59,211 bases of DNA from Actinomycetales bacterium (lineage in GTDB: Bacteria; Actinomycetota; Actinomycetes; JAJZTN01): the NCBI GenBank assembly GCA_051960855.1, contig JBQCDV010000084.1, positions 1 to 59,211 of the forward strand, read 5' to 3'. The stretch's first letter is position 1; every line of letters begins with the position of its first letter. The notes below the pieces were generated by a model. The model was not told the origin of the DNA. It did no database searches and saw nothing but the letters and a program-made list of their open reading frames with translations. Below, in pieces: positions 37,169-58,970 of the stretch. Made by a program: the position numbers and the translations under genes.

Positions 37169-37201
37169 GACCGGCCCGCCAGAGATCAAGGCATCATCGC
37201 C

Positions 37202-40103: not shown

Positions 40104-40591
40104 GGCCCCAAGTTAGGTCCGGGATTACTGCGCCGCCAGATCTGTCGCGGCGCCTGTGGAAACCGACAGAACCGAATGACCGACGGTTGCCGCCGGGCGC
40201 CGCCCAAAATCATCGGAGGGATGCACATTCACACTCAGATCGAGCTGGGTGGCCATCGCCCCTGGCAGCAGCGGCAGGGTGCACAGCTTCGCCAGCGCGT
40301 CGCAGGCTGAGTTGGCGTGGATGGTGCACGTGCCGGGCGACCCTGGCATTGCAAATGGCAATCACGATGGAGCCTGTCTCGAGAGTCGTAGGAGCCGTGA
40401 CATCCCGCCTCAGCACGCATCCGCACGCCCAGCGACTCTGGCCCTCTCCGGGCGTGCTGTCCGATGTCTTTCATGGAGCGGCCTAGGGGAAGCGGGAGTA
40501 CAAGGGCGAGCTATTCGACGCTGGCTGGGAGCCGATCCTCGACGTGGAGAAGCGGAACCGCCTGAACGACCTGCTGCGCAACCAGTCCCGA

Positions 40592-42138: not shown

Positions 42139-44868
42139 GTGGCGACGAAGGTGATCGGGGGCGGATCGAGCGCCGTCGCCGCGTCGTCACACGCGGCGTG
42201 CGCCCGGTTCCGGGGGACTGATCCGCTTATCACCGGGGTCACGCGACGCGGCCTGGCCAAGGCGGTCGGCTTTCAAGACGATTTCGGTGGCATCCCAGAG
42301 GCCCGCTGGATGCGTGCGATGACCTTCGAGCGGCTGGTTCGCGACGAGAAGTTCGCGAGCGAGGTTGCCACCACCGCCGTCGGCCGGCTAAATCTCGCGC
42401 GTCCGACCAAGGTCGTCACCGTAAACGCAAGGATCAACGTCGACCGCACCGCCAAGCTCCTGGCAGACGCTCACGACCGCGCCGTCGCCGAGGGCGCCGC
42501 CACGATGATCCACGGACTCGCGGTCCCCTTCGTCGGGTTCGAGGACGAGCGGGCGACCGACGTCAAGCCTGACTTCGCCGTGGTTGCGCCACAGGTTCCC
42601 CATGGCGACGACACTGTCAGCAAGAGTTGGCTGATATTGGGCGACGCCAAGGACTACGAGCGCGTCCGCTCCCGAATCGACGACGCCCGACTGCTGAAGG
42701 GCTTCCTCCAGGTCGCGCTCGGAGCCGAGTCGGCCGCGAACTGGTCGCAGCTCCCAGCCGACATGGCCGTCCATTCCCACGGCGTCCTCGCCGTGCCGCG
42801 CAACGCGTTCCTCCAGCCGGAGGCGTTGGTCGAGAATCTCGGCGACCACCGCGAGGAGGTCCGAACGCGGGTCGGCGAGCGTCGCCGGGAGGCCACCTCG
42901 GTCCAGTACGACGCAAAGACGCTGATCACGGACCACGTCCGGCATCTGGAGGCCACGTTCAACCCGGCCACCTGCTCGTCGTGCACGCTGTTCTCGTTCT
43001 GCCGCCACGAGCTACGCAGCTCTGAGGACCCGACGGACCTGCTGGTCGAGATCGGCATCTCCCGTACCGAACGCCCGCTCCTCGTGGGCATGGTCGACGG
43101 CAGCGGTCTGGTCGGGGACGCTGCGGCGTCGACCCGCGCGCTGGTCGCGGCGACGTTGGACGGCGTCGCCCGGCCGACCGGTCAGGCTCGGATCGACCAA
43201 GCCGGCCTGCCGGGCACCGTGAACGTCGTCATCGCGAAGTCCGACAGCGCAGCGCTGGGCGTGTATGGCATCGCCGTGCAGCGGGTCAGCCGCGACGGTC
43301 CGGGCAAATGGCAGACGACCGTTTTCGATGACCCGCAGAGCGCGGACACCCGACGCGCCATCATGAAGGTGCTGGGCAAGGAGCTCACCGCGGCGATGAA
43401 GGATCGCCGCCAGGTCGATCCGGAGGCACCCGACCCGGTGCATGTCGTAGTTCCGGACAAGCCGACCGCGGACGTGCTCGTGTCTATCGCCGACAACCTC
43501 GCGGGCATCGAGCTAAGCCGCCTCCGGTGGGTGCGGGACAAGCAGATGGGCCGTAGGCCGCTGACGTTCAACGGCGAGGACGCAGAGATCCCCGCAGCGC
43601 TTCGGGAGACGGAACGAACCGCCGTCTCGTTCCTGCTCGAGGAGGACCGGGCCCGCGCGCTCGCCCTGCGATCGCCGATCGTCGACGCCCGCGCAGCCCT
43701 CGCCCGGCACATCGTCGCTGGCGGTCCAGCCGTCAACGCCCTCCGCCTGGACTACCTCGTGCCCTGGGCCGAAGCCACCGCCGCCGAGCCGCTGGACCAC
43801 CGCGCACTGGCCGACCTTATCGAAGCAGAAGAGCACACACCCGGCGCCCGGTTGACCAACCGGCGCTCCAACGCCATCCACCAAGCCTTCACCGGCAGGG
43901 GCAAAGGCGACCCGCGTCCGGCCGACATCGCGAAGTACCACGCCTTGATCCGAGATGAGCTTGCCTACAAGTCGGGGTTCATGGACCGCGCAGTGGCTGC
44001 CCTGGCGTGCATCGTCGACTCGCGTCTTCGAGAGGTCTACCGCTCGATCGAGGGGGACGCTCAGGCAATCTGGCGACGCCGCCTGAGCCTGCACGCGTCG
44101 GACCTGGTCCGGTTCGGCCGCACCTACCGCCACTGGCGCAACTCGCTGGTGCCCGCCATCGAAGCCGACGACAGGTGCGCCAAGCAGTTGCTCGCGCTCA
44201 CCAACCCCCAGGCGGCGCTGGACGCCGCCCGCAACGCCGGCACCCGAGAAATCGCCACGGCCCGAGTCGTTACGACCGCGCCGCTCACCATCGAGATCGA
44301 CTCACGACGGATCGGGGCCGAGCGACGTGTGGTCCTGCTGCACGTCAACGAGCAGGCCTGCGTGGAGTCCGACGGCGTAGTCGTCGCGTTCCTGAAGGGC
44401 AGCTTCAAAATCACGGGTCTGGGGATCGGCCCCCTTGCCGTCGTCGACGCGGCACGCCGTCACTTCGAGTGGTCCCCGGCCATCGACCTCGGGCTGACTG
44501 TGGGCGACGAGCTGATCGTGGCGAACTTCGAGTGGTTTTCGTCCCTGAAGGGCAACCAACAGCTCAACGTTGCGCGGCCGACACCGGACACCATCTCGGC
44601 GCCAGCCCCTGACTGCACCGAGGACACATACGCCGACGACCCGACCGGACACCGGTACTGCTGCCGGCCCCACGAAATCGCTGAAGCGGAGTGGTCCGAC
44701 AGCATCGCTGAGCGCCGCGCCCGCGGCGAACTGAACCCGCAGGCGTGGCCCCCGCTGGTGGACGGCGACGCCTTTGAGGTGTCGCCGACCGACGCCCGCT
44801 TGGGCGACCCAACCGCTCAGCCGGCCACTCCGGTTCCCGACGACGTCACCGTGGACGACCTGGAGTAG
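42139..44868 (+). CDS. Large Cas4/AddB/Dna2-like Fe-S PD-(D/E)xK nuclease
   Basis: N-terminal Cys (HAAC), KPDF...GDAK...LQ nuclease motif, CSSCTLFSFC (CxxCx5C); beta-rich C-terminus. Confidence 0.7.
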   Translation: MATKVIGGGSSAVAASSHAACARFRGTDPLITGVTRRGLAKAVGFQDDFGGIPEARWMRAMTFERLVRDEKFASEVATTAVGRLNLARPTKVVTVNARINVDRTAKLLADAHDRAVAEGAATMIHGLAVPFVGFEDERATDVKPDFAVVAPQVPHGDDTVSKSWLILGDAKDYERVRSRIDDARLLKGFLQVALGAESAANWSQLPADMAVHSHGVLAVPRNAFLQPEALVENLGDHREEVRTRVGERRREATSVQYDAKTLITDHVRHLEATFNPATCSSCTLFSFCRHELRSSEDPTDLLVEIGISRTERPLLVGMVDGSGLVGDAAASTRALVAATLDGVARPTGQARIDQAGLPGTVNVVIAKSDSAALGVYGIAVQRVSRDGPGKWQTTVFDDPQSADTRRAIMKVLGKELTAAMKDRRQVDPEAPDPVHVVVPDKPTADVLVSIADNLAGIELSRLRWVRDKQMGRRPLTFNGEDAEIPAALRETERTAVSFLLEEDRARALALRSPIVDARAALARHIVAGGPAVNALRLDYLVPWAEATAAEPLDHRALADLIEAEEHTPGARLTNRRSNAIHQAFTGRGKGDPRPADIAKYHALIRDELAYKSGFMDRAVAALACIVDSRLREVYRSIEGDAQAIWRRRLSLHASDLVRFGRTYRHWRNSLVPAIEADDRCAKQLLALTNPQAALDAARNAGTREIATARVVTTAPLTIEIDSRRIGAERRVVLLHVNEQACVESDGVVVAFLKGSFKITGLGIGPLAVVDAARRHFEWSPAIDLGLTVGDELIVANFEWFSSLKGNQQLNVARPTPDTISAPAPDCTEDTYADDPTGHRYCCRPHEIAEAEWSDSIAERRARGELNPQAWPPLVDGDAFEVSPTDARLGDPTAQPATPVPDDVTVDDLE

Positions 44869-44870
44869 GC

Positions 44871-46376
44871 ATGGACGTCACCTTCACTCCGCCACGCGAG
44901 CCGGCGGAGCCTTCAATTCACCATGCCCGGGCCGCAGCCGGCAACGCCGCGGTCGCAGAGAAAGCGATCGGGCACCTCCGTGACGCGCTTTCCGGCCCGG
45001 CCGAGATCGACCGGATCCTGATGAAGGCGGCAGCCGGCGCCGGAAAGTCCTACGTGCTCAAGAAGCTCGTCGCTGACTCCCTGGAACATCCGCGCTGCCT
45101 CCGCGTCGGCGTCATCGCGTTCCAGAATCGCCAGCTTTGGCCGATCGCCGCTTCCCTCGGGCAGGCCTTGGGCATGGGCCGCGTCTGCCTGTTCTCCAGC
45201 AAAGACGCCTACGACAAGGTGCCCGACGACGTGCTCCACCACGCCGAGGTCACCACCTCCACCTCGCACATCCCCGACGATTGCGTCGTCATTGTCGCCA
45301 CCGCCCACCGGCTGGGAGCCATCGGCGAGCGGAAGCGCCTCCTTGACCACCTCGGGGCCGGGGCCAACGGTGTCGTACCTTTCGACGTTCTCTTCGTCGA
45401 CGAGGCCTGGCAGCTTCCTCACTACCTGTTCGACAAGGTCGCCAACCTCGCACCGATCACGGTCGGTGTCGGTGACGTCGGCCAACTTCCGCCGCTCGAA
45501 TTGGGCGCCAACCCTTGGCGCGGCGACCCCGGCTACAACCCGTACCGCGCCTGGCCGACCAACTACGACCACGACGATCGGACCTGGTCGACCGAGCTCC
45601 CCTCCGTCTGGCGCCCTGCCGCCGGGCAGCTTCCGCTGTGGCGGGCGTTCTACCCGGAGTGGGCACAGCTCAACTGTGTCGCCGCGCCCGGCGACCGGTT
45701 GCTGCACGTGTCCGGGCTGAACGGCGCCGCTGCCGAGGTGTGGGCGGAGGTCGCCAAGGGTGTCCCTGTGATGCTCGAGGTCGACGGGCTGGCTGACCCC
45801 GAGGCGCCCGATGTGGACCTGCCGCTGATGGAATTCGTCGAGGACCTGCTCGACCAATTGTTCACCGCCGGACTCAAGCTCGAGCAGGCAGTGTACGACG
45901 AGGCCGGGTCACCCACCGGTGACGTGGCCTCCGCAGAACCCGGAGATGCGGCAGGTGACCCCCTCGTCGCCGTCTTGGCTACCCGCAACCAGGCGGTCGA
46001 CGACGCAACAGACGCCGTGGAACGGCTACAGAAGAAGCACGGTCTGACCGACAAGGATCTCCTCGCGTCGACCGTCGACTCCTGGCAAGGCCAGACGAAC
46101 GGGATCACCGTCGCGCTGCACCCGCTCAGCGGTGCGTCTCAACTCGACGAGTTCAACTCGGCGTTCGGCCGCCTCGCCGTCACCTGCACCCGTGCCACCC
46201 ACGGACTGCTGGTGGTATCCCGCCCCGGCCTGGATCGGCTCCTGGCCGAAGCCCCGGTCGCGCCCGGCACCCCCATCGGGGAGCCGGGCACCCGGCAACT
46301 GCCGCGGCAGACACACCAGCGCATCCTCGCGACGTTCACGCGCGGGACCGTTACCGTCACCGCGAACGCAAAGTGA
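44871..46376 (+). CDS. SF1 (UPF1/Dna2-like) helicase
   Basis: AAAGAGKS, VDEAWQ, VGDVGQL, TVDSWQGQT, RLAVTCTRA; 2 bp after the nuclease stop. Confidence 0.85.
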   Translation: MDVTFTPPREPAEPSIHHARAAAGNAAVAEKAIGHLRDALSGPAEIDRILMKAAAGAGKSYVLKKLVADSLEHPRCLRVGVIAFQNRQLWPIAASLGQALGMGRVCLFSSKDAYDKVPDDVLHHAEVTTSTSHIPDDCVVIVATAHRLGAIGERKRLLDHLGAGANGVVPFDVLFVDEAWQLPHYLFDKVANLAPITVGVGDVGQLPPLELGANPWRGDPGYNPYRAWPTNYDHDDRTWSTELPSVWRPAAGQLPLWRAFYPEWAQLNCVAAPGDRLLHVSGLNGAAAEVWAEVAKGVPVMLEVDGLADPEAPDVDLPLMEFVEDLLDQLFTAGLKLEQAVYDEAGSPTGDVASAEPGDAAGDPLVAVLATRNQAVDDATDAVERLQKKHGLTDKDLLASTVDSWQGQTNGITVALHPLSGASQLDEFNSAFGRLAVTCTRATHGLLVVSRPGLDRLLAEAPVAPGTPIGEPGTRQLPRQTHQRILATFTRGTVTVTANAK

Positions 46377-46386
46377 AGGAGGGCCC

Positions 46387-48513
46387 TTGTCTCGGCTCAA
46401 TGATCTGATCTGCCAGGTTGGCCTCACCAACGAGGCCCTGGCCGCAGATCTGCAGCGTGAGGTCGCCGCCCTGGCCGACCGCCGCTCGTTCGGGCTCAAC
46501 TTCGAGCGGCACGTCCCCGAGGCCGTCGAGCTCCCCGGCCGCCCAGTCCGCCGCGGAGACAAGGTCCGGATTCTCCCGCCCCGAGGCCAGACTGCGAGGC
46601 AGGCCGACCAGGCGCTCTGGCAGGTCACCAGGATTGATCGAAGCCGCAACGCACCCCTTGCCGAGTTGGTTGCCCTCGGCGACGAGACCGAGGCCACGAC
46701 TGCGTCCGTTGAGGACCTCGTCGTCGTCGCGGAGTTCCGCGACCCCATCTATCCCGGGTTGGTGTCCACGGGCAAGGTCGAACGCGGAGGCGACAAGCCT
46801 TTCCACACGGTCATCAACGCCGAGAATTATCACGCACTGCAGACGCTCCTCTTCACGCACCGCGGCAGGGTTGATGCCATATATATCGACCCGCCCTACA
46901 ACAGCGGATCCACGGACTGGAAATACAACAACCACTACGTGGCTAGCGACGACCACTATCTCCACTCGAAGTGGCTCGCATTCATGGAGCGTCGTCTGCT
47001 GTTGGCGAAGGAATTGCTCAATCCCAGCGACTCTGTCCTGATCGTGACGATCGACCACAACGAGGTCAACCGACTGAGTCTGCTCTTGGAACAGACTTTT
47101 CCGGGTGCTCGAATGCAGATGGTGACGTCAGTGATCAATCCGCGCGGCAAATACAGAGCCAATGATTTCGCACGGTGTGAAGAGTACGTATTCTTCCTTG
47201 CTTTCGGAGACGCAATAGTCCAGGGCGAGCCTGACGACGATTTTGGCACCGATGCGCCGATTGCTTGGCGAACTTTTCGCAGAAGCGACATCTCCTCGAA
47301 ACGGGGCACTGCCAAGGGCGGCACCGGCCAATTCTTTCCCGTTTACGTCACCGACGAGGGAAAGATCGCTCAGATTGGCTCGCCATTGCCCCATGGCGTG
47401 CCGAGGACCGAGGCGCCAATCCTCAGCGGCTGTACTGCAGTGTTTCCGATGCGAGACGATGGCACGGAGATGAACTGGGGCCTGACCGTTCCGGCGGCGA
47501 AGCGGCTGCTGGCTAAGGGCTACTTACGGGTCGGGCGGCATACGCCAGACAAGCCTCAGCCGTGGGAACTCTCCTATCTGACGTCGGGTCGCATCGCTGA
47601 CATCGAGGAGGGCCGTGCATTAGTCACTGGCCACAACGCCGATGGCAGCGTTGTGGCCTCCTATGTCACGCACAAAGTCAAGATGCCAGTCACGACATGG
47701 AATCGATCGAGCCACAACGCCGAGACGCAGGGCACGGAGTTACTCAAGGCTCTCCTCGGCGAGAAGTTGTTCGACTTCCCGAAATCCCTCTACGCAGTTG
47801 AGGACGCACTTCGACTGTTCGTCGCAGATAAACCCCAAGCTCTGGTTGTCGACTTCTTTTGCGGTTCGGGAACCACGGGACATGCCGTGATGAGGCTCAA
47901 CAAGCAGGACGGGGGGCGGCGGCGATCAATTTGCATCACGAACAATGAACTGTCTGCGACGGAGGAGGACGCGCTGAGGGGCAGGGGCCTTCGGCCGGGC
48001 GACCCAGACTGGGAGCGATGGGGTATCTGCGAGTACATCACCAAGCCGCGAATCTCATCCGCAGTCACCGGTAGAACTCCGTCTGGTGACGCGATCAAGG
48101 GTGACTACAAGTTTGGCGACGAGTTCCCGATGGCCGACGGGTTCGAGGAGAACGTAGAGTTCTTCACTTTGACGTACGAAGCACCCCTCCGCGTTGCCAG
48201 CCATCGCGACTTCGAGCGGATCGCGCCGCTTCTGTGGCTTCGGGCCGGCTCCCGCGGGCGCCGGATCCAGGACGTGACGCAGGGCTGGGACGTTGCCGAA
48301 GCCTACGGCGTTCTTGCTGACCTCGACCAGGTCGAGCCATTCCTCAAGGCTGTAACTGAACAGGAAGAACTCGGCATCGCCTTCATCGTGACGGACGAGG
48401 ATCGGTTGTTCGAGTCGGTGGTCCGTGAACTTCCCGATCATGTGGAGCCGGTTCGGCTCTACGAGGCGTACCTGCGCAACTTCGAGATCGAGTCCGGGAG
48501 GGGCGCCCGGTGA
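46387..48513 (+). CDS. mod: Type III R-M methyltransferase subunit (Mod)
   Basis: IYIDPPYN, HSKWLAFMERRL, FDFPKS, DFFCGSGTTGHAV; AAGGAGG RBS with TTG start. Confidence 0.92.
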   Translation: MSRLNDLICQVGLTNEALAADLQREVAALADRRSFGLNFERHVPEAVELPGRPVRRGDKVRILPPRGQTARQADQALWQVTRIDRSRNAPLAELVALGDETEATTASVEDLVVVAEFRDPIYPGLVSTGKVERGGDKPFHTVINAENYHALQTLLFTHRGRVDAIYIDPPYNSGSTDWKYNNHYVASDDHYLHSKWLAFMERRLLLAKELLNPSDSVLIVTIDHNEVNRLSLLLEQTFPGARMQMVTSVINPRGKYRANDFARCEEYVFFLAFGDAIVQGEPDDDFGTDAPIAWRTFRRSDISSKRGTAKGGTGQFFPVYVTDEGKIAQIGSPLPHGVPRTEAPILSGCTAVFPMRDDGTEMNWGLTVPAAKRLLAKGYLRVGRHTPDKPQPWELSYLTSGRIADIEEGRALVTGHNADGSVVASYVTHKVKMPVTTWNRSSHNAETQGTELLKALLGEKLFDFPKSLYAVEDALRLFVADKPQALVVDFFCGSGTTGHAVMRLNKQDGGRRRSICITNNELSATEEDALRGRGLRPGDPDWERWGICEYITKPRISSAVTGRTPSGDAIKGDYKFGDEFPMADGFEENVEFFTLTYEAPLRVASHRDFERIAPLLWLRAGSRGRRIQDVTQGWDVAEAYGVLADLDQVEPFLKAVTEQEELGIAFIVTDEDRLFESVVRELPDHVEPVRLYEAYLRNFEIESGRGAR

Positions 48514-51095
48514 AGTTCACTCTCAAGGACTACCAGGCCGATGCCGTTGACGACATCCTCAAGAGCCTTGGTCGTGCGAAGCACATCTACGAGATTGAGG
48601 GCAAGGAGGTCTCCGTCTCGCTGAGCGCCACGACGGGAGCCGGAAAGACGGTCATGGCCGCCGCGGTGATCGAGGCGCTGTTCTACGGCAACGAGACGTT
48701 CGACTTCGACGCAGATCCTGGCGCCGTCGTGATCTGGTTCTCTGACGACCCGAATCTCAACGACCAGACGCGCTTCCGGTTGATGGAGGCGTCCGACAAG
48801 CTGACGGCGACGGATCTGGTGACGATCCAGCCGCCGTTTGCCAAGCCGCGGCTCGATCCGGGCAAGGTCTACTTCCTCAACACCGGCAAGCTCACCAAGA
48901 GCTCCCTGCTCACCCGCGGACACGTCGAGGTGGACGACGAGGATGTGCTGGCCACCATGACGGCAGCCGCGCAGCCGGACCTGCAGGGCTGGACGATTTG
49001 GGAGACGATCGCCAACACCATCGAGGACGACGACCTCACCCTCTACCTGATCCTGGACGAGGCGCATCGCGGCTTCAACACCAAGACAAGCGGTGAAAAG
49101 CCAACCATCGTGCGCAAGCTGGTCAACGGTCACGCCGGCTACCCGCCCGTCCCGATCGTGTGGGGCATCTCCGCGACCATCGAACGGTTCAAGGAGGCGA
49201 TGCAGGCCGCGGACGCCAGCAAGTCCCGCCGCGCGCTGCCGCCGGTCACCGTCGACGGGTTCCGGGTACAGGAGTCCGGCCTCGTCAAGGACACCGTCGT
49301 GCTCGAGATCCCGGCTGAGGCGGGGAACTTCGACACCGTGCTCGTACGTCGAGCCGCCAAGAAACTTCGGGACTCCGCCGAGCGCTGGGAGCGGTACGCG
49401 GCGGCGCAGGGATCCGGCGACGTCGTACGACCGCTTCTGGTGCTGCAGGCGCCGAACACCCCCGACCACGATCAGCTCGGCCGTGCACTCGACGAGGTCT
49501 TCCAGGAGTTCCCGGAATTCCGGCAGAACTCGGTGCGCCACGTGTTCGGCGAGCACATCACCCAGAAGTTTGGCACCTGGGAGGTGGACTGGATCGAGCC
49601 GCAGCGCGTGCAGGAGCGATCCGAGGTCCGCGTGCTGGTGGCCAAGGACGCGATCTCCACAGGCTGGGACTGCCCTCGCGCCGAGGTGATGGTGTCCTTC
49701 CGGCCGGCGAAGGACCACACGCACATCACTCAACTGCTCGGCCGGATGGTCCGCAGCCCCCTGGCGCGTCGCGTGCCCGGGGACGAGAAGCTCAACTCGG
49801 TGGAGTGCATCCTCCCGTTCTTCGACAGGACGACTGCGGGCAACGTGGTGAAGTTTCTGACCGGGCAGATCGGCGAGGTCGCGCCACCCACGCAGAAGGC
49901 CGTCATCGAGGAGTGTCTCCTCGGCCCCAACCCACAGTTGTCAGAGTCGGTGTGGAGGTGCTGGGACGCGTTGCCGACCTTGACGATCCCGCAACGCGGT
50001 GCCGCACCGGTCAAGCGCCTCGTCTCGCTCGCGCTGGCACTGTCGGCGGACGGGCTGCGACCCGGGGCGTTGGCCGACGCCGAGCGCGAGATGCACCGCG
50101 TCCTCGACGCCGCGCGCGTGCGACACCCGGACCTGTTGAAGAGGGCCGTCTCGGAGATCTGGGCGGTGCGCGGCCAGGCCATCGCCGGCCGCGTCGGCAA
50201 GAACCAGCTCACATACCAGGATTTCGTCGAGCGCGCTGACGACCGGGCCATCCAAGTCGGTTTCGCCGACGCGAAGAAGGCGTTCGGCGCCGACGTCGCC
50301 CAGTCCTACGTCAACCATCTGACGGCTGATGACGACGACGACAGTCTCCGAGACGCCTACGTCACCACGTCAGCGCTAGCCATCGTGCCCGAGGTCCGCT
50401 CCCAGATCGACCGGGAGGCCGACGAACTCGCCAGGAGATGGTTTGCCGACTACCGGGTGGCGATCAAGGGCCTCCCGGACGAACGGCAGCAGGACTACGA
50501 GGACATCCGGGCACTCGCGACGGAGCCTCAGCAGGGGGAACTGAAGCGGCCGCGATCCCGCATCGAAGACTACGTCGAGGTTCTGCCCGGCGGACAGCAA
50601 GCGCGGGCGCCAATGGTTGCCGGTCACTTGATGTCGGACGATGACGGGATGTTCCCGATCGGGTCGCTCAACGCCTGGGAGCGTGACGTCGTCATCAAGG
50701 AGCTCTCACGCCCGGACTTGGTGGGGTGGTATCGCAACCCGCCCCGGCAGGCAGTCGACTCGCTCGGGGTCGCCTACCGCGACGAGGTCGGCAACTGGCG
50801 CTCGATGCACCCGGACTTCATCTTCTTCCACGAGATCGACCGTGTCGTGCGCCCATCGATCGTCGATCCACACGGTCACCACCTAGAAGACTCGCTGGTG
50901 AAGCTTCAGGGCCTGGCCAGGTTCGCCGAGCAGTTCGGGTCTGACTTCCACCGGATCGAGGCTGTAAGCAAGCTCGGCGCCTCTATGAAGATCCTCGACC
51001 TCAAGGTCCGGGCAGTTCGCGACGCGATCCTCGCCAGCAAGAGGCCGCCGCTAGAACTCTACGAGTCCGACTTCGCCACCGATTACGACGACTAA
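48510..51095 (+). CDS. res: Type III R-M restriction subunit (Res)
   Basis: LKDYQ, ATTGAGKT, LDEAH, SAT, GWDCP, QLLGRMVR, C-terminal HPDFIFF...IVDPHG; GTGA overlap with mod. Confidence 0.9.
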   Translation: MKFTLKDYQADAVDDILKSLGRAKHIYEIEGKEVSVSLSATTGAGKTVMAAAVIEALFYGNETFDFDADPGAVVIWFSDDPNLNDQTRFRLMEASDKLTATDLVTIQPPFAKPRLDPGKVYFLNTGKLTKSSLLTRGHVEVDDEDVLATMTAAAQPDLQGWTIWETIANTIEDDDLTLYLILDEAHRGFNTKTSGEKPTIVRKLVNGHAGYPPVPIVWGISATIERFKEAMQAADASKSRRALPPVTVDGFRVQESGLVKDTVVLEIPAEAGNFDTVLVRRAAKKLRDSAERWERYAAAQGSGDVVRPLLVLQAPNTPDHDQLGRALDEVFQEFPEFRQNSVRHVFGEHITQKFGTWEVDWIEPQRVQERSEVRVLVAKDAISTGWDCPRAEVMVSFRPAKDHTHITQLLGRMVRSPLARRVPGDEKLNSVECILPFFDRTTAGNVVKFLTGQIGEVAPPTQKAVIEECLLGPNPQLSESVWRCWDALPTLTIPQRGAAPVKRLVSLALALSADGLRPGALADAEREMHRVLDAARVRHPDLLKRAVSEIWAVRGQAIAGRVGKNQLTYQDFVERADDRAIQVGFADAKKAFGADVAQSYVNHLTADDDDDSLRDAYVTTSALAIVPEVRSQIDREADELARRWFADYRVAIKGLPDERQQDYEDIRALATEPQQGELKRPRSRIEDYVEVLPGGQQARAPMVAGHLMSDDDGMFPIGSLNAWERDVVIKELSRPDLVGWYRNPPRQAVDSLGVAYRDEVGNWRSMHPDFIFFHEIDRVVRPSIVDPHGHHLEDSLVKLQGLARFAEQFGSDFHRIEAVSKLGASMKILDLKVRAVRDAILASKRPPLELYESDFATDYDD

Positions 51096-51299
51096 CGACG
51101 CGCGGGGCGGCGACTGCTCGCGGCAGCGGTAAGCCGTGGCCAGGTCTGTCCCGACGACGGGGACGAGTGAAGCGCCGGGCGGTGCGACGAGCGGGCGCGG
51201 TAGCCGCTCTGGCTGTCGCCGACGCGGGGGCTACGGTAGACGTCGCGGCCCTTATGACCACCGTCGTCGAGCGCCTACGTCGGCGGGGACGCGGACGCT

Positions 51300-51504
51300 G
51301 AGCAGCTGCGGCGATCAGATCTTCGGCGCTGATGACGTTCTCAGTCCGCGGGTGGTCTCCGCCGCCCCCGACTGCCTCGAACCGCCCTCCGGTGAACAGC
51401 GGTACCTCGCCGGCCGGCAGCCCGGGCCCGAAATACGCCTGCAAGTCGCGCAGCGCGTGCGCGTCGTCGACGAGCTCGAGCAGCTGCTGTGTGGTGACCG
51501 GCAT
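51300..51504 (-). pseudogene. DUF6308-like N-terminal remnant
   Basis: ALRDLQAYF...FTGGRFEAVGGGGD...ISAEDLIA, after which similarity is lost. Confidence 0.6.
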
Positions 51505-51905
51505 GCGCACAGCATGGCTGATGGCAACCACGCGCTGGGCGGTACGGGCGTCGCTGTCGCAGGTGGAGCTACCAGCCCCACTCGTCCCCGGCGGGCGGCC
51601 CGGTCAAGTCGGGCGCCCAGTTCGGGTCGCCGGTCGTGACTGGGCTGCACGGCGTCGTGGCGGCCAAGAGCTGAATTCTCGACGACGCCAGCCGGCAGTC
51701 GCGCGACGCCGTCAGTGTGGGACCGAGATCCGCACCGGCTCCCCTGTCCGGGGCCGCAGCCGGGTAGTGGCGGAAGGGGCGAGGAGCGCTCGCGCACGTG
51801 AGCATCCGGAGGGCGCCTTCTCGCCGACCGCGAAGGTGATTGCGTAGCGATAGCAGGCGCGCACGGTGCCTGAGCGTCAACATCCCGACGTTCAGGAGTT
51901 CACCA

Positions 51906-54062
51906 GTGACCCGCAGCAACACGGCTCTTCAACTCATGCAGATGCACGATGTCACGCACTTCGACGGCGATGCCGCTGCTCTGGCCTCGACCGGGGTCCT
52001 GCCCCAGCGGGTGCTCTCGCTCCTACGCAAGAGCGACAAGCCCGGTGAGGACAACTGCTCCTTCGAGGTGCAGGAGCGCAGCATCAACGCCCTCATCAGC
52101 AAGGGCAGCTTCGTCCACGACCCCCGGCCCATCGCGCAGGGCGGCGACCGGCTCCAGCAGGTCGTGTCCGGCTGGCAGAAGACGGCCAACCGGAAGAAGA
52201 TCGCCGAGGTCATCGAGATGGCGACCTCGGGGCGCTACCACGCCGTGGTCGTCTACAAGATGGACCGCCTCGGACGGCGCGTGTCCGAGGTCTCGGAGTA
52301 CCTCGAGCACCTCGCTGACCACAACGTTCTCCTCATCTCGGTCGTCGAAGGCGTCTTCGACCTACGCGACCCCATGCGCATGCAGTTCGCGCTCTTCCTC
52401 GCGGTGCAGTCGCAGGGCGAGAGCGCGAGCACCTCCCAGCGCGTCAGGAACGACCGAGCGACGCGCAAGTCCAAGGGCGCATGGCTCGGGGGGCCGCCCC
52501 CCTTCGGCTTTGAGGTCGACGCGGACCTGGCCGCCAACGGCGAGCGCGTCTACAACCGCACCCCCCAGGGGACGAAGCGCCTGCGGCTCAGAGCGACCGA
52601 GGCAGCGACGCTGCGACTCATCGTGGACTGGATCTGCGTCGAACGGATGAGCACCATCGCGGCCGTCCGCAGGGCCAACGAGGAGGGGCTGCGCAACCGC
52701 GAGGGCAAGGAGTTCCGCTACCAGCACATCCGGAACCTGCTCCGCAGCCCGGTCCTCTTCGGCGGCATCCCCGAGAGCGACTACGACAAGGCGACCGGTC
52801 ACGTCATCGAGCGCTCCCTGCGACCGGCCGTCGACGACGCCGGGAATCCCCACGTTGTCCACGAGCCGCTCATGTCGCTCCAGGAGTGGCTGCAGCTCCA
52901 GAGGCTGACGGGGCAGCGGGCCACGTGGATCAAGTCACGTTCAGCGCACGCTCCATTGCTCGCGGGGCTCATCAGGTGCGGCGCCGGTCCGCGCGGGGCT
53001 GACGGCGCCAAGGCCGCGGGGGGCTGCGGTGCACGGATGTACGGGTCCGGCTCGCCTCACGCGAAGAGCAGCTACACGTGCCGGGTCTCGTGCAGCAACC
53101 GCGGCCGCTGCGCCGGCAACACGGTGACGCAGGTGGCAGTCGAGGAGTGGGTCACGGCCGTTTTCCTCGAGCTCCTCAGCGCGCCGGACTTCGCCAGGCA
53201 GCATGCGAAGCTCGTCGCTCAGGCCCTCGACGACCGGGACACGCTGGCGGCCACGCTGCTCAAGCAGCTGAACGTGCTCCAGGAGCAGCTGCCAGACCTC
53301 GAAATGGCGTCTCGCACCAAGTCCGGGCGCGCGCGCATCCTCGCGATCGACGCCGTCGAGGAGACAGAGAGGCAGGTCGCCGAGACGAGGGCGCAGCTCG
53401 TGGCCCTGCAGGTCGTGCCCGACTCCCTGCACCCGTTCGTCGGCCACGACCCCGCGGAGGTGTGGCGAGCAGCGACCCAGGGCCAGAGGAGCGCATGGCT
53501 GGCGACGGTGTTCTCGAAGATCGAGGTCCTTCCGTCCATCCGGGGCCGCGGCGCGCAGGCCGGCGGCTTCGGCTCACGTGGGCTGGACCCACGGCGGATC
53601 CGCATCCACACCCACCACAACCCTGACAACCCCATCGTCGTCGCTGACGACTACCAGCTACCGGCACCCGACCTCGGCGGCAGCGTCACCTGCCCGGACT
53701 GCGACAAGGAGCTGAGGAACTGGGCTGCACTCGCGGCCCACCGCCGGTGGGCCCACGGAGTGGTAGCCGCGGCGAAGGCAGCCCGAGGTGAGACCGCCAA
53801 GGAGTACCGGTGCTACGAGAAGGGCTGCGACCGGGTGTACTACGTCGAGGTCCCGCTGCGGAACCACCTGTACAGGGAGCACGGGATCACGCAGGGCTAC
53901 CCGTGTCCGCAGTGCGAGCGGACGTTCGCGCTCCCGGCTCACCTCGGCCGCCACCTGGGGACGCACCGCGACGAACGAGACGCGTGCGAACTCTGCGGCA
54001 AGCTCGTGAAGCACGGCGGCCTGCGTCTCCACAAGGTGCGTGCGCACGGCAACCCGAGTTAG
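51906..54062 (+). CDS. Large serine recombinase with four C-terminal C2H2 zinc fingers
   Basis: LRKS catalytic Ser (52032-52034), SG, KMDRLGR, ESASTSQRV, GGPPPFGF, HEPLM, LLAGLIRCG...CG...YTC...C zinc ribbon, coiled coil, DPRRIRI; then four C2H2 motifs; AGGAG RBS before GTG 51906. Confidence 0.93.
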   Translation: MTRSNTALQLMQMHDVTHFDGDAAALASTGVLPQRVLSLLRKSDKPGEDNCSFEVQERSINALISKGSFVHDPRPIAQGGDRLQQVVSGWQKTANRKKIAEVIEMATSGRYHAVVVYKMDRLGRRVSEVSEYLEHLADHNVLLISVVEGVFDLRDPMRMQFALFLAVQSQGESASTSQRVRNDRATRKSKGAWLGGPPPFGFEVDADLAANGERVYNRTPQGTKRLRLRATEAATLRLIVDWICVERMSTIAAVRRANEEGLRNREGKEFRYQHIRNLLRSPVLFGGIPESDYDKATGHVIERSLRPAVDDAGNPHVVHEPLMSLQEWLQLQRLTGQRATWIKSRSAHAPLLAGLIRCGAGPRGADGAKAAGGCGARMYGSGSPHAKSSYTCRVSCSNRGRCAGNTVTQVAVEEWVTAVFLELLSAPDFARQHAKLVAQALDDRDTLAATLLKQLNVLQEQLPDLEMASRTKSGRARILAIDAVEETERQVAETRAQLVALQVVPDSLHPFVGHDPAEVWRAATQGQRSAWLATVFSKIEVLPSIRGRGAQAGGFGSRGLDPRRIRIHTHHNPDNPIVVADDYQLPAPDLGGSVTCPDCDKELRNWAALAAHRRWAHGVVAAAKAARGETAKEYRCYEKGCDRVYYVEVPLRNHLYREHGITQGYPCPQCERTFALPAHLGRHLGTHRDERDACELCGKLVKHGGLRLHKVRAHGNPS
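53691..54047 (+). other. Tandem C2H2 zinc-finger array within the recombinase
   Basis: ZF1 53691-53756 Cx2Cx12Hx4H; ZF2 53811-53882 Cx4Cx12Hx4H; ZF3 53904-53966 Cx2Cx12Hx3H; ZF4 53985-54047 Cx2Cx11Hx4H. Confidence 0.92.
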
Positions 54063-54077
54063 TCCCAGCAGCGATCG

Positions 54078-54118
54078 CGCAGGGGGCGGGAAGCGGACCT
54101 GCTTCCCGCCCCCTTGCG
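54078..54118 (+). terminator. Terminator hairpin after the recombinase
   Basis: AGGGGGCGGGAAGC...GCTTCCCGCCCCCT 14-bp stem. Confidence 0.75.
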
Positions 54119-55204
54119 TCGCGTCCTCGCCGGTCCTCGATTGTGTCTTGGGTGGGCGGCGGGAACCGGTGTCGTCCGGCTGCGGGCCGCCCGTCGCCCT
54201 GGCGACGGCTCGCAGAGCAACCCTTCTCCGCCCCGGAACTCGGTTAGCCAGCAAGGCCTTGGTGCCCTTACCGCAACAGATCGAAGGCGGGGGCGTCAGC
54301 CGCCTGGACGTCGTCGACGCGCCACTCCGGGCACAACTCCTTGAGTTGCCGGCGCCTACGGACGGTCCGCACTGTTCGGTCCGGCCCCCGGCTAGCTTCC
54401 GGCGGGATGAGCATGGCCGTTACTGTCCCGTCGCCACCTGCGACGAGCGATGTGTCCTGACACGATGTCACCTCTCGCGAGGGGCCCAAAGTGACGACGG
54501 ACGCTGCAGATTGCCCAGGCCAAGTACAGGAGCCTGAGCGCGCGGGTTCAGGAGCCGCCGGTGCTCATCGCGGCGTGTCGCGCGGTCTCCAGCGCTTCTC
54601 AAGCCCCATAGGACGAAGCCGGCCCCGTCCAACAGTCTGGACGAGGCCGGCCCGGGTCGCTACCAGGCTAGGCGGCCAAGGGCTGCTCCCCGCGACCTAC
54701 GCCGTCGGTCGAGGACGTGCGCGACTTCAGAATCTCGGCCGTCACAGCGGCGACGTGGGCTGCAGCGAAGGGCGGCAGGGGAAAGCGTGCAGCCGTCTCC
54801 GCCGCGAGGGTGAGGAGGGCAGGGGACAGGTCCATGGGTTGGCTCCGTAGTTTGTTTGTCGGGCAGGGACGACTGCACGGTGCTGACCTCACAGACATGG
54901 GCAATCGCGCCGGCATAGAAGGCCACGGGCAGATGTGGCTGCATGCCTCCGCCGACCTTGGCTGGCAACACCGCAAGGGCACGCCAGTCGGACGCAGCGG
55001 GCCGAGGAACCTGCTACTAGTGAGAACACCGGGCCGCGCGAGCCAGACCTCCGGAATGGAACGCAGGACCGTCCTACGCAGGCAGAGGCGCAACTTCGGC
55101 CTCTTTGCATTCTGGGCCGGCAACAACGCCGTCTGTGATTTCGCGACGAGGACTTCTGCTGGGCTCTGCCGAGTCCGTCCCCCCGCTAGTCATCCGCCGC
55201 GGCA

Positions 55205-56725
55205 TCAAGGCTTGGCAGGTTGGAGTCTCTCGGCCGCCGACGGCGGCGACCCAGGGTCATTGCCCGGGAGGTCCACCGCGGGCCGGGGGCCGCTGCCCGG
55301 TCGGACCGCAGGCACCCACCGCCCCCCCTCGATGCGCCACAGCGGCCCGTTGGCTCCCTGAACTTCGACGCCATTGGTCAAGGACAGCCTGACCGCACCC
55401 TCGCGCTGGCAGGCTGCGACGACGTCTGGGGGTGGCCGGTGCCGCAGGCTTCCTAGCACGAGGATCCCCGAGCCGATGCTGAGCCCGTGGTTGTTGAACC
55501 AGACGTAGCCGTGCTTTCGGGCGACGAACAGAAATGCCGAGACGGCCTCAGCCACGAAGGCGACGGGCCGTCTAAACTTCGCAGCCACCTCCGCCACTAG
55601 ATCGTCAAAAGCGATCACTAACCCCAGGCGGTCGTCGAAGCCGTGGAGGAGCTCCGTCTTCCAGTGTTCAGGGTGAGCCCGAAAGTCGAATTGCTTCGCG
55701 CTTCCTGCACTTGCAACAGCCGGAGGCTTTTGACCGGCGCCGAGCAACTGCTCGCGGCGAATCCGCCACGCCTCGTGCTGACGACGCTGCTGCTCGTCGA
55801 TCCATCGCTGGCGGCGGGCCTCGCGCTGCCTCCGGCGTTCCTCCTCCTGGCGGGCACGGCGTGCGGCGCGAGCAGCCTCCCCCGCATGCCGTGCGAGTTG
55901 TCCATACAGGGCGGGGGTGAGTACCCCCTCGCGTTCCAGGCGGCAACTCTCGAGGCTCTCGACCTGCAGCGTGGCCGTGCGCACTTCGGATGCGCTGTCG
56001 TCGTCCGCCAGCAGCTGGGTCTCCTGCCAGGAGAGGAGGCCGGTGCCGATGAGCTCCTCGAAGGGGTTGATCCACAGCAACGGGAGGCCAGCTGCGGCCG
56101 CGGCACGCGTCACCGCCACCAGGGTCACGTCGGCCGGCCCGGAGGCGTAGAGCTTAGGGGCCTGCTTGCAGTACCGGGGGACATGCCCCCAAAGCCACAC
56201 GTCCGTAATGCCAAGGCGCACATAGCCGGCATGCCGAGCTCGCCACTCCTCCACGGTCAGCGGCGAGTACTGCACCTCGACGGCCACCTTGTGTCCGGTG
56301 ACGCCGGTGATGAGGACGTCGGGCTTGCGTCCGTTAGGCAGCACGACCTGGTCCACCTCCACCGTCAGCGCGGGGTTGGCGCTGCGGGCCCAGCGACCAA
56401 TGAGGTTCTTGGCTGTCAGGTGCGCCAGCGTCTCGGCCTCGTGGACAACGCTGGTGTTGGGCAGGTGCCTGAAGTGATCTCTGCGAGTTCCGCCGCTGGT
56501 GGTGAACCTCGGCGCTGGGCAGTCCTCGACGGGGCACTGCAGCTCGCCGGTCTTGCACCGCGGGCGCACCGCGTCGGCCTGCCCTCGCTCGAGGAACACC
56601 AGCTCCAGGCCGGGCGCGGTCGTGTCGCGAGCAAACAGTTGGCGACCGGCAACCTGCTCGAAAAACCGGCGGTGTGCGTCGTCGCCGGTGTTCGCACGCA
56701 CCGGCGCAACCGCGAAGTGCCCCAC
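55205..56725 (-). CDS. CoiA-like zinc-ribbon + PD-(D/E)xK nuclease
   Basis: CPVEDC...DHFRH, ETLAHLTAK, RKPDVLI...VAVEVQYS, DVWLW; Arg/Glu coiled coil; start uncertain. Confidence 0.75.
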   Translation of the reverse strand: MGHFAVAPVRANTGDDAHRRFFEQVAGRQLFARDTTAPGLELVFLERGQADAVRPRCKTGELQCPVEDCPAPRFTTSGGTRRDHFRHLPNTSVVHEAETLAHLTAKNLIGRWARSANPALTVEVDQVVLPNGRKPDVLITGVTGHKVAVEVQYSPLTVEEWRARHAGYVRLGITDVWLWGHVPRYCKQAPKLYASGPADVTLVAVTRAAAAAGLPLLWINPFEELIGTGLLSWQETQLLADDDSASEVRTATLQVESLESCRLEREGVLTPALYGQLARHAGEAARAARRARQEEERRRQREARRQRWIDEQQRRQHEAWRIRREQLLGAGQKPPAVASAGSAKQFDFRAHPEHWKTELLHGFDDRLGLVIAFDDLVAEVAAKFRRPVAFVAEAVSAFLFVARKHGYVWFNNHGLSIGSGILVLGSLRHRPPPDVVAACQREGAVRLSLTNGVEVQGANGPLWRIEGGRWVPAVRPGSGPRPAVDLPGNDPGSPPSAAERLQPAKP

Positions 56726-56936
56726 GCCCCCGTTGTGACCGCTTGGGTCGGTCGCCCCCACCACGCTTCGGAAGCGTACGCGGAAGCGAGCTCAGAAACG
56801 GGTTGACCCGGCCGGGCTCGCAGACGCTAATCACTTCGGGCTTGCCACACGACCACAAACGACGGGCGACCCGCTCCTCGCATCAGGACCACCACGAGAG
56901 ACGTGAAGAATCGGATGCGCAACTTCCGTCGAGCCC

Positions 56937-57396
56937 CTACGCGGTCAGATCGGGAATGACGACGTGCAGCCGTGAGCCGTCGGGGAGGCCGGCGTCCACG
57001 AAGGCAGAGCTGAGGTCGAGCCTGCGCCCCGACCAGGCCAGCACGCGCTCGACGAGATTACGCACCTGGGACTCGGTCAGGATCACCGTGGTCAGCTCGC
57101 TCCGGCCCCGACGGGCCGCGAAGAACTGGTCGGGTGCATTGAGCCAGACCTCCTCGACCTCCGGGTCATCGAGCAGCTCTTGCAGAGGCCCCAGACCTGC
57201 GACCGCGTCGAAGGCGGCGCGGGCCGCGACGTCGAGGTCCCCGAGCGGCGGGAGCGGCGCCGACAGCGTGCGCCGGTCCTAGTCACGCACGACCTCGTCG
57301 ATGAGCTCGCGCAGCTGCTCCTGCTGTGTCGCCGGGTCCAGGCCCCGCTGCCGCACGAGCAGGCGCACCTGCTCCTCGACGTGCCAGTCCACTCAT
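56937..57396 (-). pseudogene. cpaF: CpaF/TadA pilus ATPase, N-terminal remnant
   Basis: GLGPLQELLDDPEVEEVWLN...GRRLDLSSAFVDAGLPDGSRLHVVIPD; frameshift just after the ATG, internal TAG at 57279-57281, ends before Walker A. Confidence 0.87.
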
Positions 57397-57545
57397 TCTG
57401 CTCTCCCCGTAAGGCTTCGCGTCCCGGCGACAACAGCCGCAGGAAGGACCAAACCGGGTGGGAGGTTAGCGATCAGACGTCGCGGACGGAATCCCTCAAT
57501 CCACAGCCCCCCGTCTGCGCTCCCTACCGAAGTGGTCGTGACGGG

Positions 57546-57563
57546 GGTAGGGCCAGCCCTACC
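57546..57563. promoter_or_regulatory. 8-2-8 inverted repeat, likely binding site of the NarL-type response regulator
   Basis: GGTAGGGC-CA-GCCCTACC upstream of the kinase gene. Confidence 0.55.
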
Positions 57564-57620
57564 GTGGGGACACCGGCGGACGCCATGGGCAGCAGGGGTC
57601 CGGACGACCAGGGTGGAGGT

Positions 57621-58970
57621 ATGTCAGTGACCACGTCCTTCACCGCCCCCATTCCCGCCGCCGATGAGCCCGGGAGCAGCGCACCTAGGCGCAGCATCCG
57701 CCTGCTTGCGCCGCTGGCCGACCCACGCACCTGGCTACGCACCCTGCACCTGCTGCTGAGCCTGCCAGTCGGCACGGTGTCGTTTGCCTTCTTCGTTACC
57801 GCCGTGTCGCTGTCATTCGGCTTGGTGCCCCTGGCGCTGGTCGGCGTGGCCCTGCTGGCTGTCACGGTGCTCGGCGGCCGGGTTTTCGGCAGCGTCGAGC
57901 GCGCCCGGGCGCGTGCTCTGCTCGGCGTCGAGGTAACCCCGCCCCCAAGCGTGCGAGGGGGCGAGCGCGGCCGCGCCTTGCTCCGCACGCTCCTCACCGA
58001 CGCCGCAGGGTGGCGTGGCCTCCTCTACGGCCTGCTGCTCCTGCCGAGCGGCGTCATCGGCTTCACTCTGGCGGTCACGATCTGGTCGCTGGCCCTGGCG
58101 GGCATCGCCGCGCCGCTGGTGATCTGGCTGACACCGGCTCCCGACGTCAACTTCATCGACATCCCCGGCGTGCCGCTGTGGGCCCGAGTCGTGGTCGCCT
58201 TCGTGCTCGGGGTCGCCGCTCTGCTGGCCGCTCCGCACGTCGTGCGCGGCTGGGCCGCTGTGGAGGCAGCGCTCGTGCGAAGCCTGCTGGGCGCGACGTC
58301 GATGACCGAGCGGGTGCGGGAGCTCGAGAGCAGCCGCGACCGGGCCGTCCAAGCCGCAGCTGCAGAGCGCCGGCGAATCGAGCGCGACCTGCACGATGGG
58401 GCGCAGGTCCGCCTCACTGCCCTCGCGATGCAGCTCGGGCGGGCCAAGGAGGCGCTGCCGGACGACTCCGAGGACCCGGTCGTGCGGAGCAGCGCTGCGC
58501 TCGTGCGCGACGCCCACGAGCAGGCGAAGGCCGCACTGGTGGAGGTGCGCGCCCTGGCACGGGGCATCGCGCCCGCGATCCTGTCCGAGCGTGGGCTCGA
58601 CCCCGCGCTGAGCAGCCTCGCGGCCGCCTCCCCTGTGCCCGTCGACCTCGAGGTGTCGCTGCCCAGCCGGCTGCCGGAGCGTGTGGAGAGCGCCGCCTAC
58701 TACGTCGTCGCCGAAGCGTTGGCCAACGTCGCCAAGCACAGCGGCGCCAGCCGGGCCCGGGTCGAGGTCAGCTGCGGCCCCTCGTCCAGCCGGGACCAGG
58801 TGCTGAGGGTGCTCGTCGGTGACGACGGCCGCGGCGGCGCCGCTGCCCGCCCCGACAGCGGCCTGACCGGACTCGCAGCCAGGCTCGCCGCGCTCGACGG
58901 CCGCCTCACGGTGACCAGCCCGACAGGCGGACCGACGACGGTCGTCGCCGAGGTGCCATGCGGGTCGTGA
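57621..58970 (+). CDS. Membrane sensor histidine kinase (HisKA_3/DesK-like)
   Basis: Four TM segments, ERRRIERDLHDGAQ, EALANVAKH, DDGRGG, SGLTGL. Confidence 0.94.
   Translation: MSVTTSFTAPIPAADEPGSSAPRRSIRLLAPLADPRTWLRTLHLLLSLPVGTVSFAFFVTAVSLSFGLVPLALVGVALLAVTVLGGRVFGSVERARARALLGVEVTPPPSVRGGERGRALLRTLLTDAAGWRGLLYGLLLLPSGVIGFTLAVTIWSLALAGIAAPLVIWLTPAPDVNFIDIPGVPLWARVVVAFVLGVAALLAAPHVVRGWAAVEAALVRSLLGATSMTERVRELESSRDRAVQAAAAERRRIERDLHDGAQVRLTALAMQLGRAKEALPDDSEDPVVRSSAALVRDAHEQAKAALVEVRALARGIAPAILSERGLDPALSSLAAASPVPVDLEVSLPSRLPERVESAAYYVVAEALANVAKHSGASRARVEVSCGPSSSRDQVLRVLVGDDGRGGAAARPDSGLTGLAARLAALDGRLTVTSPTGGPTTVVAEVPCGS

Follow-up and report, generated by a model that had tools for sequence, protein, structure and literature searches.

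An open reading frame (ORF) on contig JBQCDV010000084.1 of a soil Actinomycetales bacterium (assembly GCA_051960855.1) encodes a large serine recombinase (LSR) that continues in frame into an array of four C2H2 zinc fingers. The window analyzed here is this contig at its full length of 59,211 nucleotides, part of a 3.5-Mb metagenome-assembled genome (MAG); we refer to the protein and its gene as LSR-ZF. We are highly confident that this architecture is real, conserved, and under purifying selection. The protein is probably the integrase of a defense island that is inserted into cpaF, the ATPase gene of the tad pilus. A homolog sits in an island with unrelated cargo in a second genome, and alignment of the flanking DNA places both insertions at the same codon of cpaF. 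Our best overall explanation, that LSR-ZF is the integrase of these cpaF islands and that its fingers would serve as a third DNA-binding module, is one that we favor with modest confidence.

RESULTS

A large serine recombinase joined to four zinc fingers

By sequence features the LSR-ZF protein is an LSR: it has four of the five defining features tested, with Zn_ribbon_recom below its cut-off (19.2 against 25.3 bits); catalysis is predicted. Pfam recognizes a Resolvase domain (1.1e-16, 61.7 bits, aa 87-193) and a Recombinase domain (42.3 bits against a cut-off of 21.1), and a phmmer search of PDB sequences matched aa 93-207 to phiC31 integrase and SPbeta YokA. The first-pass annotation, made from the DNA letters alone, had called the recombinase apparently intact. 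The catalytic residues are indeed present, with R41, S43, Q56, D120, R121, and R124 invariant in an alignment with four fingerless LSRs; the serine motif is read from this alignment, since the Pfam Resolvase match starts at profile position 42. The four cysteines of the putative zinc ribbon are invariant among the close homologs. In the AlphaFold2 (AF2) model the coiled coil is formed by helices at aa 429-471 and 475-501 (pLDDT about 60-85). The fingerless LSRs end soon past the column of aa ~541, which makes the C-terminal ~150 residues an add-on.

These added residues form a linker and a zinc-finger array (Table 1). A search of the protein with the pattern C-x2-4-C-x11-12-H-x3-4-H returned four fingers, beginning at aa 596, 636, 667, and 694 and with the spacings that had been read at first pass. 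Pfam zf-C2H2 matches above its cut-off (4.6e-10, 39.8 bits against 25.2, in two stretches), and the related zf-C2H2_4 stays below its own (22.9 against 27 bits). An 18-aa helical spacer separates fingers 1 and 2. The linkers between fingers 2 and 3 (GITQGYP, 7 residues) and between fingers 3 and 4 (RDERDA, 6 residues) have the lengths of TGEKP-type linkers, not their sequences. Canonical base-reading residues occur in finger 3 alone (His at +3, Arg at +6), as had been said of it before; its helix, FALPAHLGRH (columns 674-683), is invariant in all members of the family.

The four fingers belong to the classical type that is characteristic of animal transcription factors. In a phmmer search of PDB sequences, aa 623-715 matched ZNF410, TFIIIA, ZNF568, and Zif268. 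Two AF2 runs both gave four beta-beta-alpha units (pLDDT about 60-78), at low overall confidence. When the C-terminal model was compared with known structures by Foldseek, the 50 listed matches with E < 0.001 were all eukaryotic poly-C2H2 structures, nearly all of them DNA-bound. TM-scores for CTCF, WT1, ZNF410, ZFP568, and Kaiso among these matches are low, 0.15-0.31, because the finger units are flexibly linked.

The reading frame is uninterrupted from 51840 or 51906 to 54062 on the forward strand. It starts with GTG at 51906, which is preceded 8 nt upstream by AGGAG, and the homolog in the second genome (contig L002) begins at the equivalent GTG. Logan contigs from four sequencing runs are identical to the window over 51800-54200, with 0 other letters and 0 gaps; the four runs belong to one study, and three of them may be the source of the window's own assembly. 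In the fourth, a single contig bridges 53444-54178 and so spans the linker. The in-frame fusion proposed earlier is thus upheld, with no stop or frameshift across the linker in the contigs of these runs. The identical contigs, together with the presence of the fusion in other genomes, rule out an assembly or frameshift artifact. The gene has a GC3 of 0.90 and a codon composition typical for its host genome (70% GC). Recent eukaryotic contamination is ruled out by the similar GC3 of the linker plus fingers (0.87) and of the LSR body (0.92) and by the 59-kb actinobacterial contig that carries the gene.

Table 1. Coordinates of LSR-ZF, its domains, and the associated island features in the window
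Feature	Position	Strand	Description
LSR-ZF gene	51906..54062	+	718 aa plus stop; LSR with C-terminal four-finger C2H2 array
Catalytic (resolvase) domain	52008..52490	+	aa 35-195; R41-K-S43, Q56, D120-R121-x-x-R124
Recombinase domain (RD)	52596..52907	+	aa 231-334; Pfam PF07508, 9.8e-11
Putative zinc-ribbon domain (ZD) with inserted coiled coil	52956..53612	+	C358, C374, C392, C402; strands 536-543 and 560-569 (RIRI)
Linker	53613..53687	+	aa 570-594, HHxPxNPIV..DDYQ..PDLGG; invariant columns; dN/dS 0.35; pLDDT low at aa 580-592
Finger 1	53691..53756	+	aa 596-617, C-x2-C-x12-H-x4-H; best Pfam zf-C2H2 stretch 595-617
Finger 2	53811..53882	+	aa 636-659, C-x4-C-x12-H-x4-H
Finger 3	53904..53966	+	aa 667-687, C-x2-C-x12-H-x3-H
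Finger 4	53985..54047	+	aa 694-714, C-x2-C-x11-H-x4-H; dN/dS 0.10
Promoter-like block	51838..51880	+	-35-like ATTGCG, 17 nt, -10-like CACGGT; hexamers read by eye
GC-rich hairpin	54082..54113	+	13-bp perfect stem, 6-nt loop, 3' of the stop; read by eye
Island cargo	42139..51095	+	two proteins (909 and 501 aa), then type III Mod 46132-48513 and Res 48510-51095
CoiA-like nuclease gene	55205..56764	-	519 aa, Pfam CoiA_nuc, convergent with the integrase
Right junction (attR)	56906..56972	-	AC 56945-56944; element arm 56943 to about 56906; cpaF arm 56946-56972
cpaF 5' part	56943..57380	-	aa 47-192 of the frame in genome G001, cut at codon 192; pseudogene, one in-frame TAG
cpaF remnant	40265..40343	-	aa 333-360; cpaF aa 193-332 and the island's left end missing

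The fusion is conserved and very rare

A search of 5.8 billion proteins with the whole protein returned, besides the window's own record, two close full or near-full-length homologs (P0003, from a Motilibacteraceae MAG, 66% identity; and P0004, 68%, which lacks its N-terminus) and a frameshifted fragment (P0005); past these, only LSRs at 25-29% identity were found. Searching longer proteins with the finger part added a divergent full-length member of 697 aa (P0015; 42% identity overall and 49% in the fingers), three fragments (P0011, P0012, and P0013), and a chimeric, frameshifted Blastococcus record (P0014). The next matches to the finger part beyond the family are animal KRAB-type ZNFs, at E 2.7e-16 and weaker. 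A profile search gave two more N-terminal fragments but no additional family member.

Four fingers with all 16 zinc ligands are found in each of the four full or near-full-length members, down to 42% overall identity. In none of these are the fingers a separate ORF, which bears out the fusion described in the first-pass annotation. The fragment P0011 has three intact fingers and a Tyr in place of the last His of the fourth. When the window's protein is compared with that of L002, conservation peaks in the fingers (78% identity, dN/dS 0.21); the LSR body has 63% identity and a dN/dS of 0.45, and the coiled coil a dN/dS of 0.72.

The family is very rare. A pattern scan of 185,579 species genomes found it at 2 loci, and an IMG/VR scan found no relative. 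Metagenome contigs held no true relative, the one hit being an unrelated LSR (32% identity over 111 aa). Among matching phage and plasmid records, 0 of 207 and 0 of 96, respectively, cover 80% of the protein. The finger part was found in 0 of 40 relatives of the window's genome, a set that takes in the unpublished genomes G023 and G031. A prophage integrase is unsupported, given the negative phage, plasmid, and IMG/VR results and the lack of phage structural genes among the annotated island genes.

A decayed copy of the integrase lies on a 4.3-kb contig of a Blastococcus MAG (L003/L006), where it has lost the N-terminal ~375 aa and has a frameshift after finger 2. The corresponding record, P0014, is annotated as fused to an HflC-like N-terminus, and cpaF is intact in that genome.

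Two islands with unrelated cargo interrupt cpaF

In the window, the genes from prfB (33423-34676) to a sensor-kinase gene are, in order, RosmerTA, a PDC-M36A candidate, genes for two large proteins, a type III restriction-modification pair, a truncated DUF6308 gene, the integrase, and the CoiA-like nuclease gene. On L002, an integrase 65% identical to LSR-ZF is likewise flanked by prfB on its upstream side and by a convergent CoiA-like gene downstream. Apart from this pair of integrase and CoiA-like genes, the two islands have no gene in common. The defense-type cargo of the second island includes an AAA_21/AAA_15 ATPase, an EcoRV-like nuclease with a C5 methylase, HNH, and AbiEi. The CoiA-like gene of L002 (14939-16528, -) is also convergent with its integrase and encodes a protein of 529 aa that is 33-36% identical to its counterpart. 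Both proteins combine a Cys/His-rich N-terminus with a CoiA_nuc domain, and the gene was found in 0 of the same 40 relatives.

Genome G001, which is of the same family and without the integrase, shows the ancestral order, in which prfB is followed by the tad pilus locus; its cpaF, on another contig, is intact. Blastococcus genome G042 has an intact cpaF too. We used CpaF of G001 in tblastn searches. Residues 47-192 match window positions 57380-56943 (62% identity, 2e-44), and residues 192-444 match L002 positions 4820-4062. The other cpaF half of the L002 genome is on a separate contig, where it stops at aa 192 and gives way to island DNA. By these alignments, both islands, unrelated in cargo, break cpaF at codon 192. 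In the second genome, the cpaF frame would be restored if the island were excised precisely. The cpaF-inserted defense island and its attachment (att) sites are new relative to the first-pass annotation, which had dealt with the protein.

The island in the window is damaged. With its left end and cpaF residues 193-332 lost, it is probably fixed in place and no longer mobile. A second cpaF remnant (36223-36363, -; aa 358-403) overlaps the first (Table 1) by about 3 codons. The 3.9 kb between the two remnants (36364-40264) holds RosmerT, RosmerA, and the PDC-M36A candidate, with no recombinase inside, and looks like a second, separate insertion into cpaF.

Such damage raises the question of whether LSR-ZF is instead a domesticated or decaying relic, inherited vertically at a rearrangement hotspot beside tad, with fingers kept for an unrelated role. 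The lost left end and 140 missing cpaF codons, the in-frame stop in the cpaF fragment, and the truncated and frameshifted Blastococcus copy would all fit this, and the divergence of the integrase (65% identity) is near that of the prfB proteins of the two island genomes (70-73%). We nevertheless consider a relic very improbable. The crossover point is the same with unrelated cargo, and the cpaF halves of the second genome are intact and in frame, which argues for site-specific insertion rather than random decay. Moreover, the protein retains its full set of catalytic residues, and dN/dS stays under 0.5 across the body. A cpaF-targeting island with LSR-ZF as its probable integrase remains the preferred reading.

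The element end also supplies a TAG stop two codons past the crossover in both islands (window 56937-56945, -; contig L019 2308-2316), so that the cut N-terminal fragment of CpaF would be terminated at once. In the window, the CoiA-like gene lies 178 nt further on in the same direction as cpaF and could therefore be read from the tad promoter.

The junctions resemble LSR attachment sites

Comparison of occupied and empty sites from four genomes, as the first-pass annotation had suggested, located the crossover at an AC dinucleotide in cpaF codon 192. This AC is the sole sequence common to both junction types. It is found at 4820-4819 (-) of L002 and 2308-2309 of L019, in addition to the window's attR (Table 1), and in empty sites at 3726-3727 of L012 and 4757-4758 of L020. 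In what follows, arms are numbered outward from it.

Three motifs recur in all three element arms: TAGSGG (positions 5-10), AG (20-21), and GCATCC (26-31). The arm at the window's attR has TAGGGG as the first of these and GCATCC as the last. Since left and right arms share these motifs, they make up an imperfect inverted repeat within one element. The right arms of the window and of the second element are identical at 24 of 38 positions over 1-38. The matches are unevenly spread, with 8 of 11 identical at positions 1-11, 5 of 14 at 12-25, 11 of 13 at 26-38, and 6 of 22 at 39-60. Conserved motifs thus extend to position 31 in all element arms and to position 38 in the right arm, and on this alignment the half-sites are unusually long, at least 31-38 bp. 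In the cpaF arms, GCAGCC (three of four genomes) or ACATCC/ACGTCC occupies positions 21-26, which is the outer motif moved 5 bp nearer to the center. For LI integrase, the available text of Rutherford et al. (PMC3783163) gives the zinc-ribbon motif at positions 16-24 in attP and 11-19 in attB. With a 2-bp core, inverted repeats, and a 5-bp motif shift as in LI integrase, the junctions look like bona fide LSR att sites.

Within the window's genome, TAGSGG-N15-GCATCC has one exact match, at the right junction. A second element-type half-site was sought there and no exact one was found; allowing one mismatch gave 28 matches and two mismatches an uninformative 633. The left arm of L002 had only chance matches in the window. 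A search for direct or inverted repeats as island ends yielded nothing convincing, and the ends given here come from genome comparison. The DNA just downstream of the two integrase genes has no shared sequence, which indicates that the att site is not beside the integrase gene.

Possible roles of the fingers

In known LSRs, the ZD binds the outermost part of the half-site. The catalytic, RD, and ZD/coiled-coil domains of LSR-ZF would work as in the phiC31, Bxb1, and A118-type integrases, and the enzyme would insert defense islands at the AC dinucleotide of cpaF codon 192. The fingers would hang from the end of the ZD by the conserved 25-aa linker and would contact DNA along the outer edge of the half-site or immediately beyond it, at positions ~26-38 or further out. 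As a third DNA-binding module, they would add affinity or specificity. We infer both that the protein makes the insertions and all that is said here of finger binding. A DNA role is the most likely one for the array, as suggested by its DNA-binding relatives in sequence and fold, its 7- and 6-residue linkers of the kind seen in DNA-wrapping arrays, and the invariant helix of finger 3. That the DNA in question flanks the att sites is a tentative proposal, which may well be wrong. More specifically, the array of such a three-module integrase could read sequence at the outer edge of att sites of ~65-75 bp, with finger 3 on the G-rich strand of GCATCC/GGATGC or in the flank beyond; in this detailed form the proposal is rather doubtful.

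Several points weigh against this interpretation. The junctions come from two islands only, and the att motifs from three element arms. LSR-ZF is the only recombinase found in the window's island, and the second island is split over two contigs and annotated in part. The ZD alone explains the outer motif and its 5-bp shift, which leaves no motif that must be ascribed to the fingers. Past position 31, the left arm of the element no longer matches the right one, which means that any finger site is not symmetric, and attB lies inside coding DNA, which confounds its conservation. As for the array itself, the mean pLDDT of the AF2 models is low (56.5 and 59.9 in the two runs), and the reading positions of finger 2 differ in P0015. 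P0012 and P0013 represent a natural three-finger form, in which the Cys pair of finger 2 has been brought up to the finger 3 helix by a deletion. Canonical base-reading residues are absent from fingers 1, 2, and 4. The classical finger code fits finger 3 only, and the sequence of the array by itself does not support a readout of 9-12 bp.

Three of four fingers without canonical base-reading residues would also suit a regulatory or protein-binding module, either a tethered directionality control that acts on the coiled coil or ZD or a dock for a host factor or the CoiA-like nuclease. Consistent with this, the array and linker are more conserved than the DNA-binding LSR body, as would be the case for a fixed protein interface, and engineered covalent fusions of an integrase with its recombination directionality factor (RDF) work, according to the available text of PMC5737554. 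No small RDF-like gene was recognized in support of such a role. RDFs are small and diverse, and the first-pass remark that no RDF gene is evident therefore carries no evidential weight. Against a regulatory module stand the sequence and fold relatives of the array, which are DNA-binding arrays, and the linker lengths of fingers 2-4, which are those of arrays that wrap DNA; we regard it as unlikely. A complex prediction for the ZD/coiled coil with the fingers (score 0.00, mark 0.32) counts neither way.

Alternatively, the fingers might bind DNA elsewhere as a repressor or autoregulator, for example at a block upstream of their own gene, and so set the expression of the integrase or the cargo. 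In this 43-nt block, the window and L002 share identical stretches of 7 nt and 14 nt; the coding DNA of the two genomes is about 72% identical. However, the block can be read as an ordinary promoter, and this alone would account for its being conserved; by eye it has no repeat of the att motifs at matching spacing. Autoregulation is in our estimate quite improbable, and we continue to favor contact with DNA at the att sites. A scan for the sigma-70 consensus found 0 sites.

At the other end of the gene, a terminator had been proposed. The hairpin is real and is likely a terminator. It has no T run, and a simple terminator scan that requires one found 0. The L002 integrase has a different hairpin at the equivalent position 3' of the gene.

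Other features of the window

The 909- and 501-aa proteins of the cargo (42139-46376, +) have no Pfam or PADLOC match. Lying between defense systems, they may be an undescribed defense pair. The second of them has a weak PLuB AAA-like match (1.3e-4). Inside the type III Mod/Res pair, GC content dips to 0.587 at 47001-48000, the minimum of the contig, against about 0.69 around it. The ORF at 51004-51531 (-) resembles DUF6308 in its first ~50-80 codons only, and the rest is rich in Arg, Pro, and Ala and looks noncoding. It is thus a truncated gene, with the restriction gene on one side and the integrase on the other.

The 1.1 kb that separate the integrase from the CoiA-like gene hold two small ORFs, 54268-54489 (-) and 54668-54835 (-), which encode 73 and 55 aa; GGAG precedes the ATG of the second. 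They have no family match and are candidates for a small accessory factor. On the far side of the island, the sensor-kinase ORF taken from its first ATG (57180-58970, +) overlaps the cpaF pseudogene (56943-57380) on the opposite strand. Its Sensor domain begins only at aa 190, and the true start of the gene is therefore probably further downstream. A tmRNA gene (24519-24910, -; tag ANTNAHCSSKNACALAA) lies about 9 kb from prfB and is unrelated to the island.

DISCUSSION

LSR-ZF shares its Resolvase and Recombinase domains, a putative ZD with a predicted coiled coil, and its catalytic residues with phiC31, Bxb1, A118/LI, and SPbeta SprA/YokA integrases. It differs from known phage and island LSRs in being only 22-28% identical to them and in having ~150 extra C-terminal residues. 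Elements that interrupt genes by means of an LSR include the fdxN element (XisF), skin (SpoIVCA), SPbeta (SprA), and the comK prophages. They insert precisely within a gene and restore its frame on excision, which is what the island in cpaF of the second genome would do. Unlike them, the LSR-ZF islands carry defense genes rather than a prophage, and there is no evidence of regulated excision. The best NCBIfam match of LSR-ZF is the XisF equivalog NF041201 (9.1e-22), and at 77.6 bits it is far below the cut-off of 375, which rejects that identity. The att sites of phage and island LSRs, as described in the available text of PMC3783163, have the same 2-bp core, imperfect inverted repeats, and attB outer motif placed 5 bp inward as the sites of the LSR-ZF islands, whose motifs lie about 7 bp further out than in the 25-bp LI attP half-site.

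As far as the consulted descriptions go, engineered zinc-finger recombinases also combine a serine recombinase and C-terminal poly-C2H2 fingers in one polypeptide. In these, the fingers stand in for the native DNA-binding domain of a small resolvase or invertase, whereas LSR-ZF keeps its RD and putative ZD and has the fingers appended. LSRs with DUF4368 (TndX/TnpX-like) have an extra C-terminal domain past the zinc ribbon that is tied to target choice, and the accessible text of Durrant et al. describes this domain as typical of multi-targeting LSRs (PMC10083194). In contrast, the LSR-ZF family has one shared target site in two genomes. Such LSRs are the nearest Atlas clusters by features (score 0.79, a lead only), and LSR-ZF has no match to PF14287 among Pfam matches at E up to 1. 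Neither "zinc finger" nor "C2H2" occurs in the main text of Durrant et al., as far as it was available, and the quality filter of that study let through only proteins 400-650 aa long (PMC10083194).

C2H2 zinc coordination outside eukaryotes is also found in Ros/MucR and in small archaeal and viral proteins. Those proteins are small, stand alone, and have one or two fingers, whereas LSR-ZF has four, with Kruppel-like spacing and fused to an enzyme. Archaeal and phage proteins with one or two fingers are the nearest Atlas clusters to the finger part (score 0.92, again only a lead). A Ros/MucR identity is rejected by the four tandem units and by the absence of such a family among Pfam matches at E up to 1. 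A search of the full-text literature, with subscription journals and database annotations outside its coverage, found no natural LSR-C2H2 fusion and no paper on the combination of zf-C2H2, Resolvase, and Recombinase. Within that coverage, the architecture is undescribed, as the first-pass annotation had supposed.

A natural LSR-zinc-finger fusion that has been kept by selection shows an attachment point, a linker, and a type of att site. This is of interest for efforts to steer recombination, which have relied on engineered zinc-finger recombinases and lately also on integrases joined to programmable DNA binders. Since a natural attB (cpaF codon 192) and both element ends are located by coordinates, the roles of the fingers are directly testable. 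If the three-module interpretation is true, the family would be a natural template for retargeting large serine integrases by finger swaps and a rare instance of a Kruppel-style poly-finger array at work in a bacterium. Few tandem classical C2H2 arrays are known from outside the eukaryotes, and LSR-ZF adds a clear bacterial example; it also belongs to a small family of defense islands that knocks out a pilus gene on insertion.

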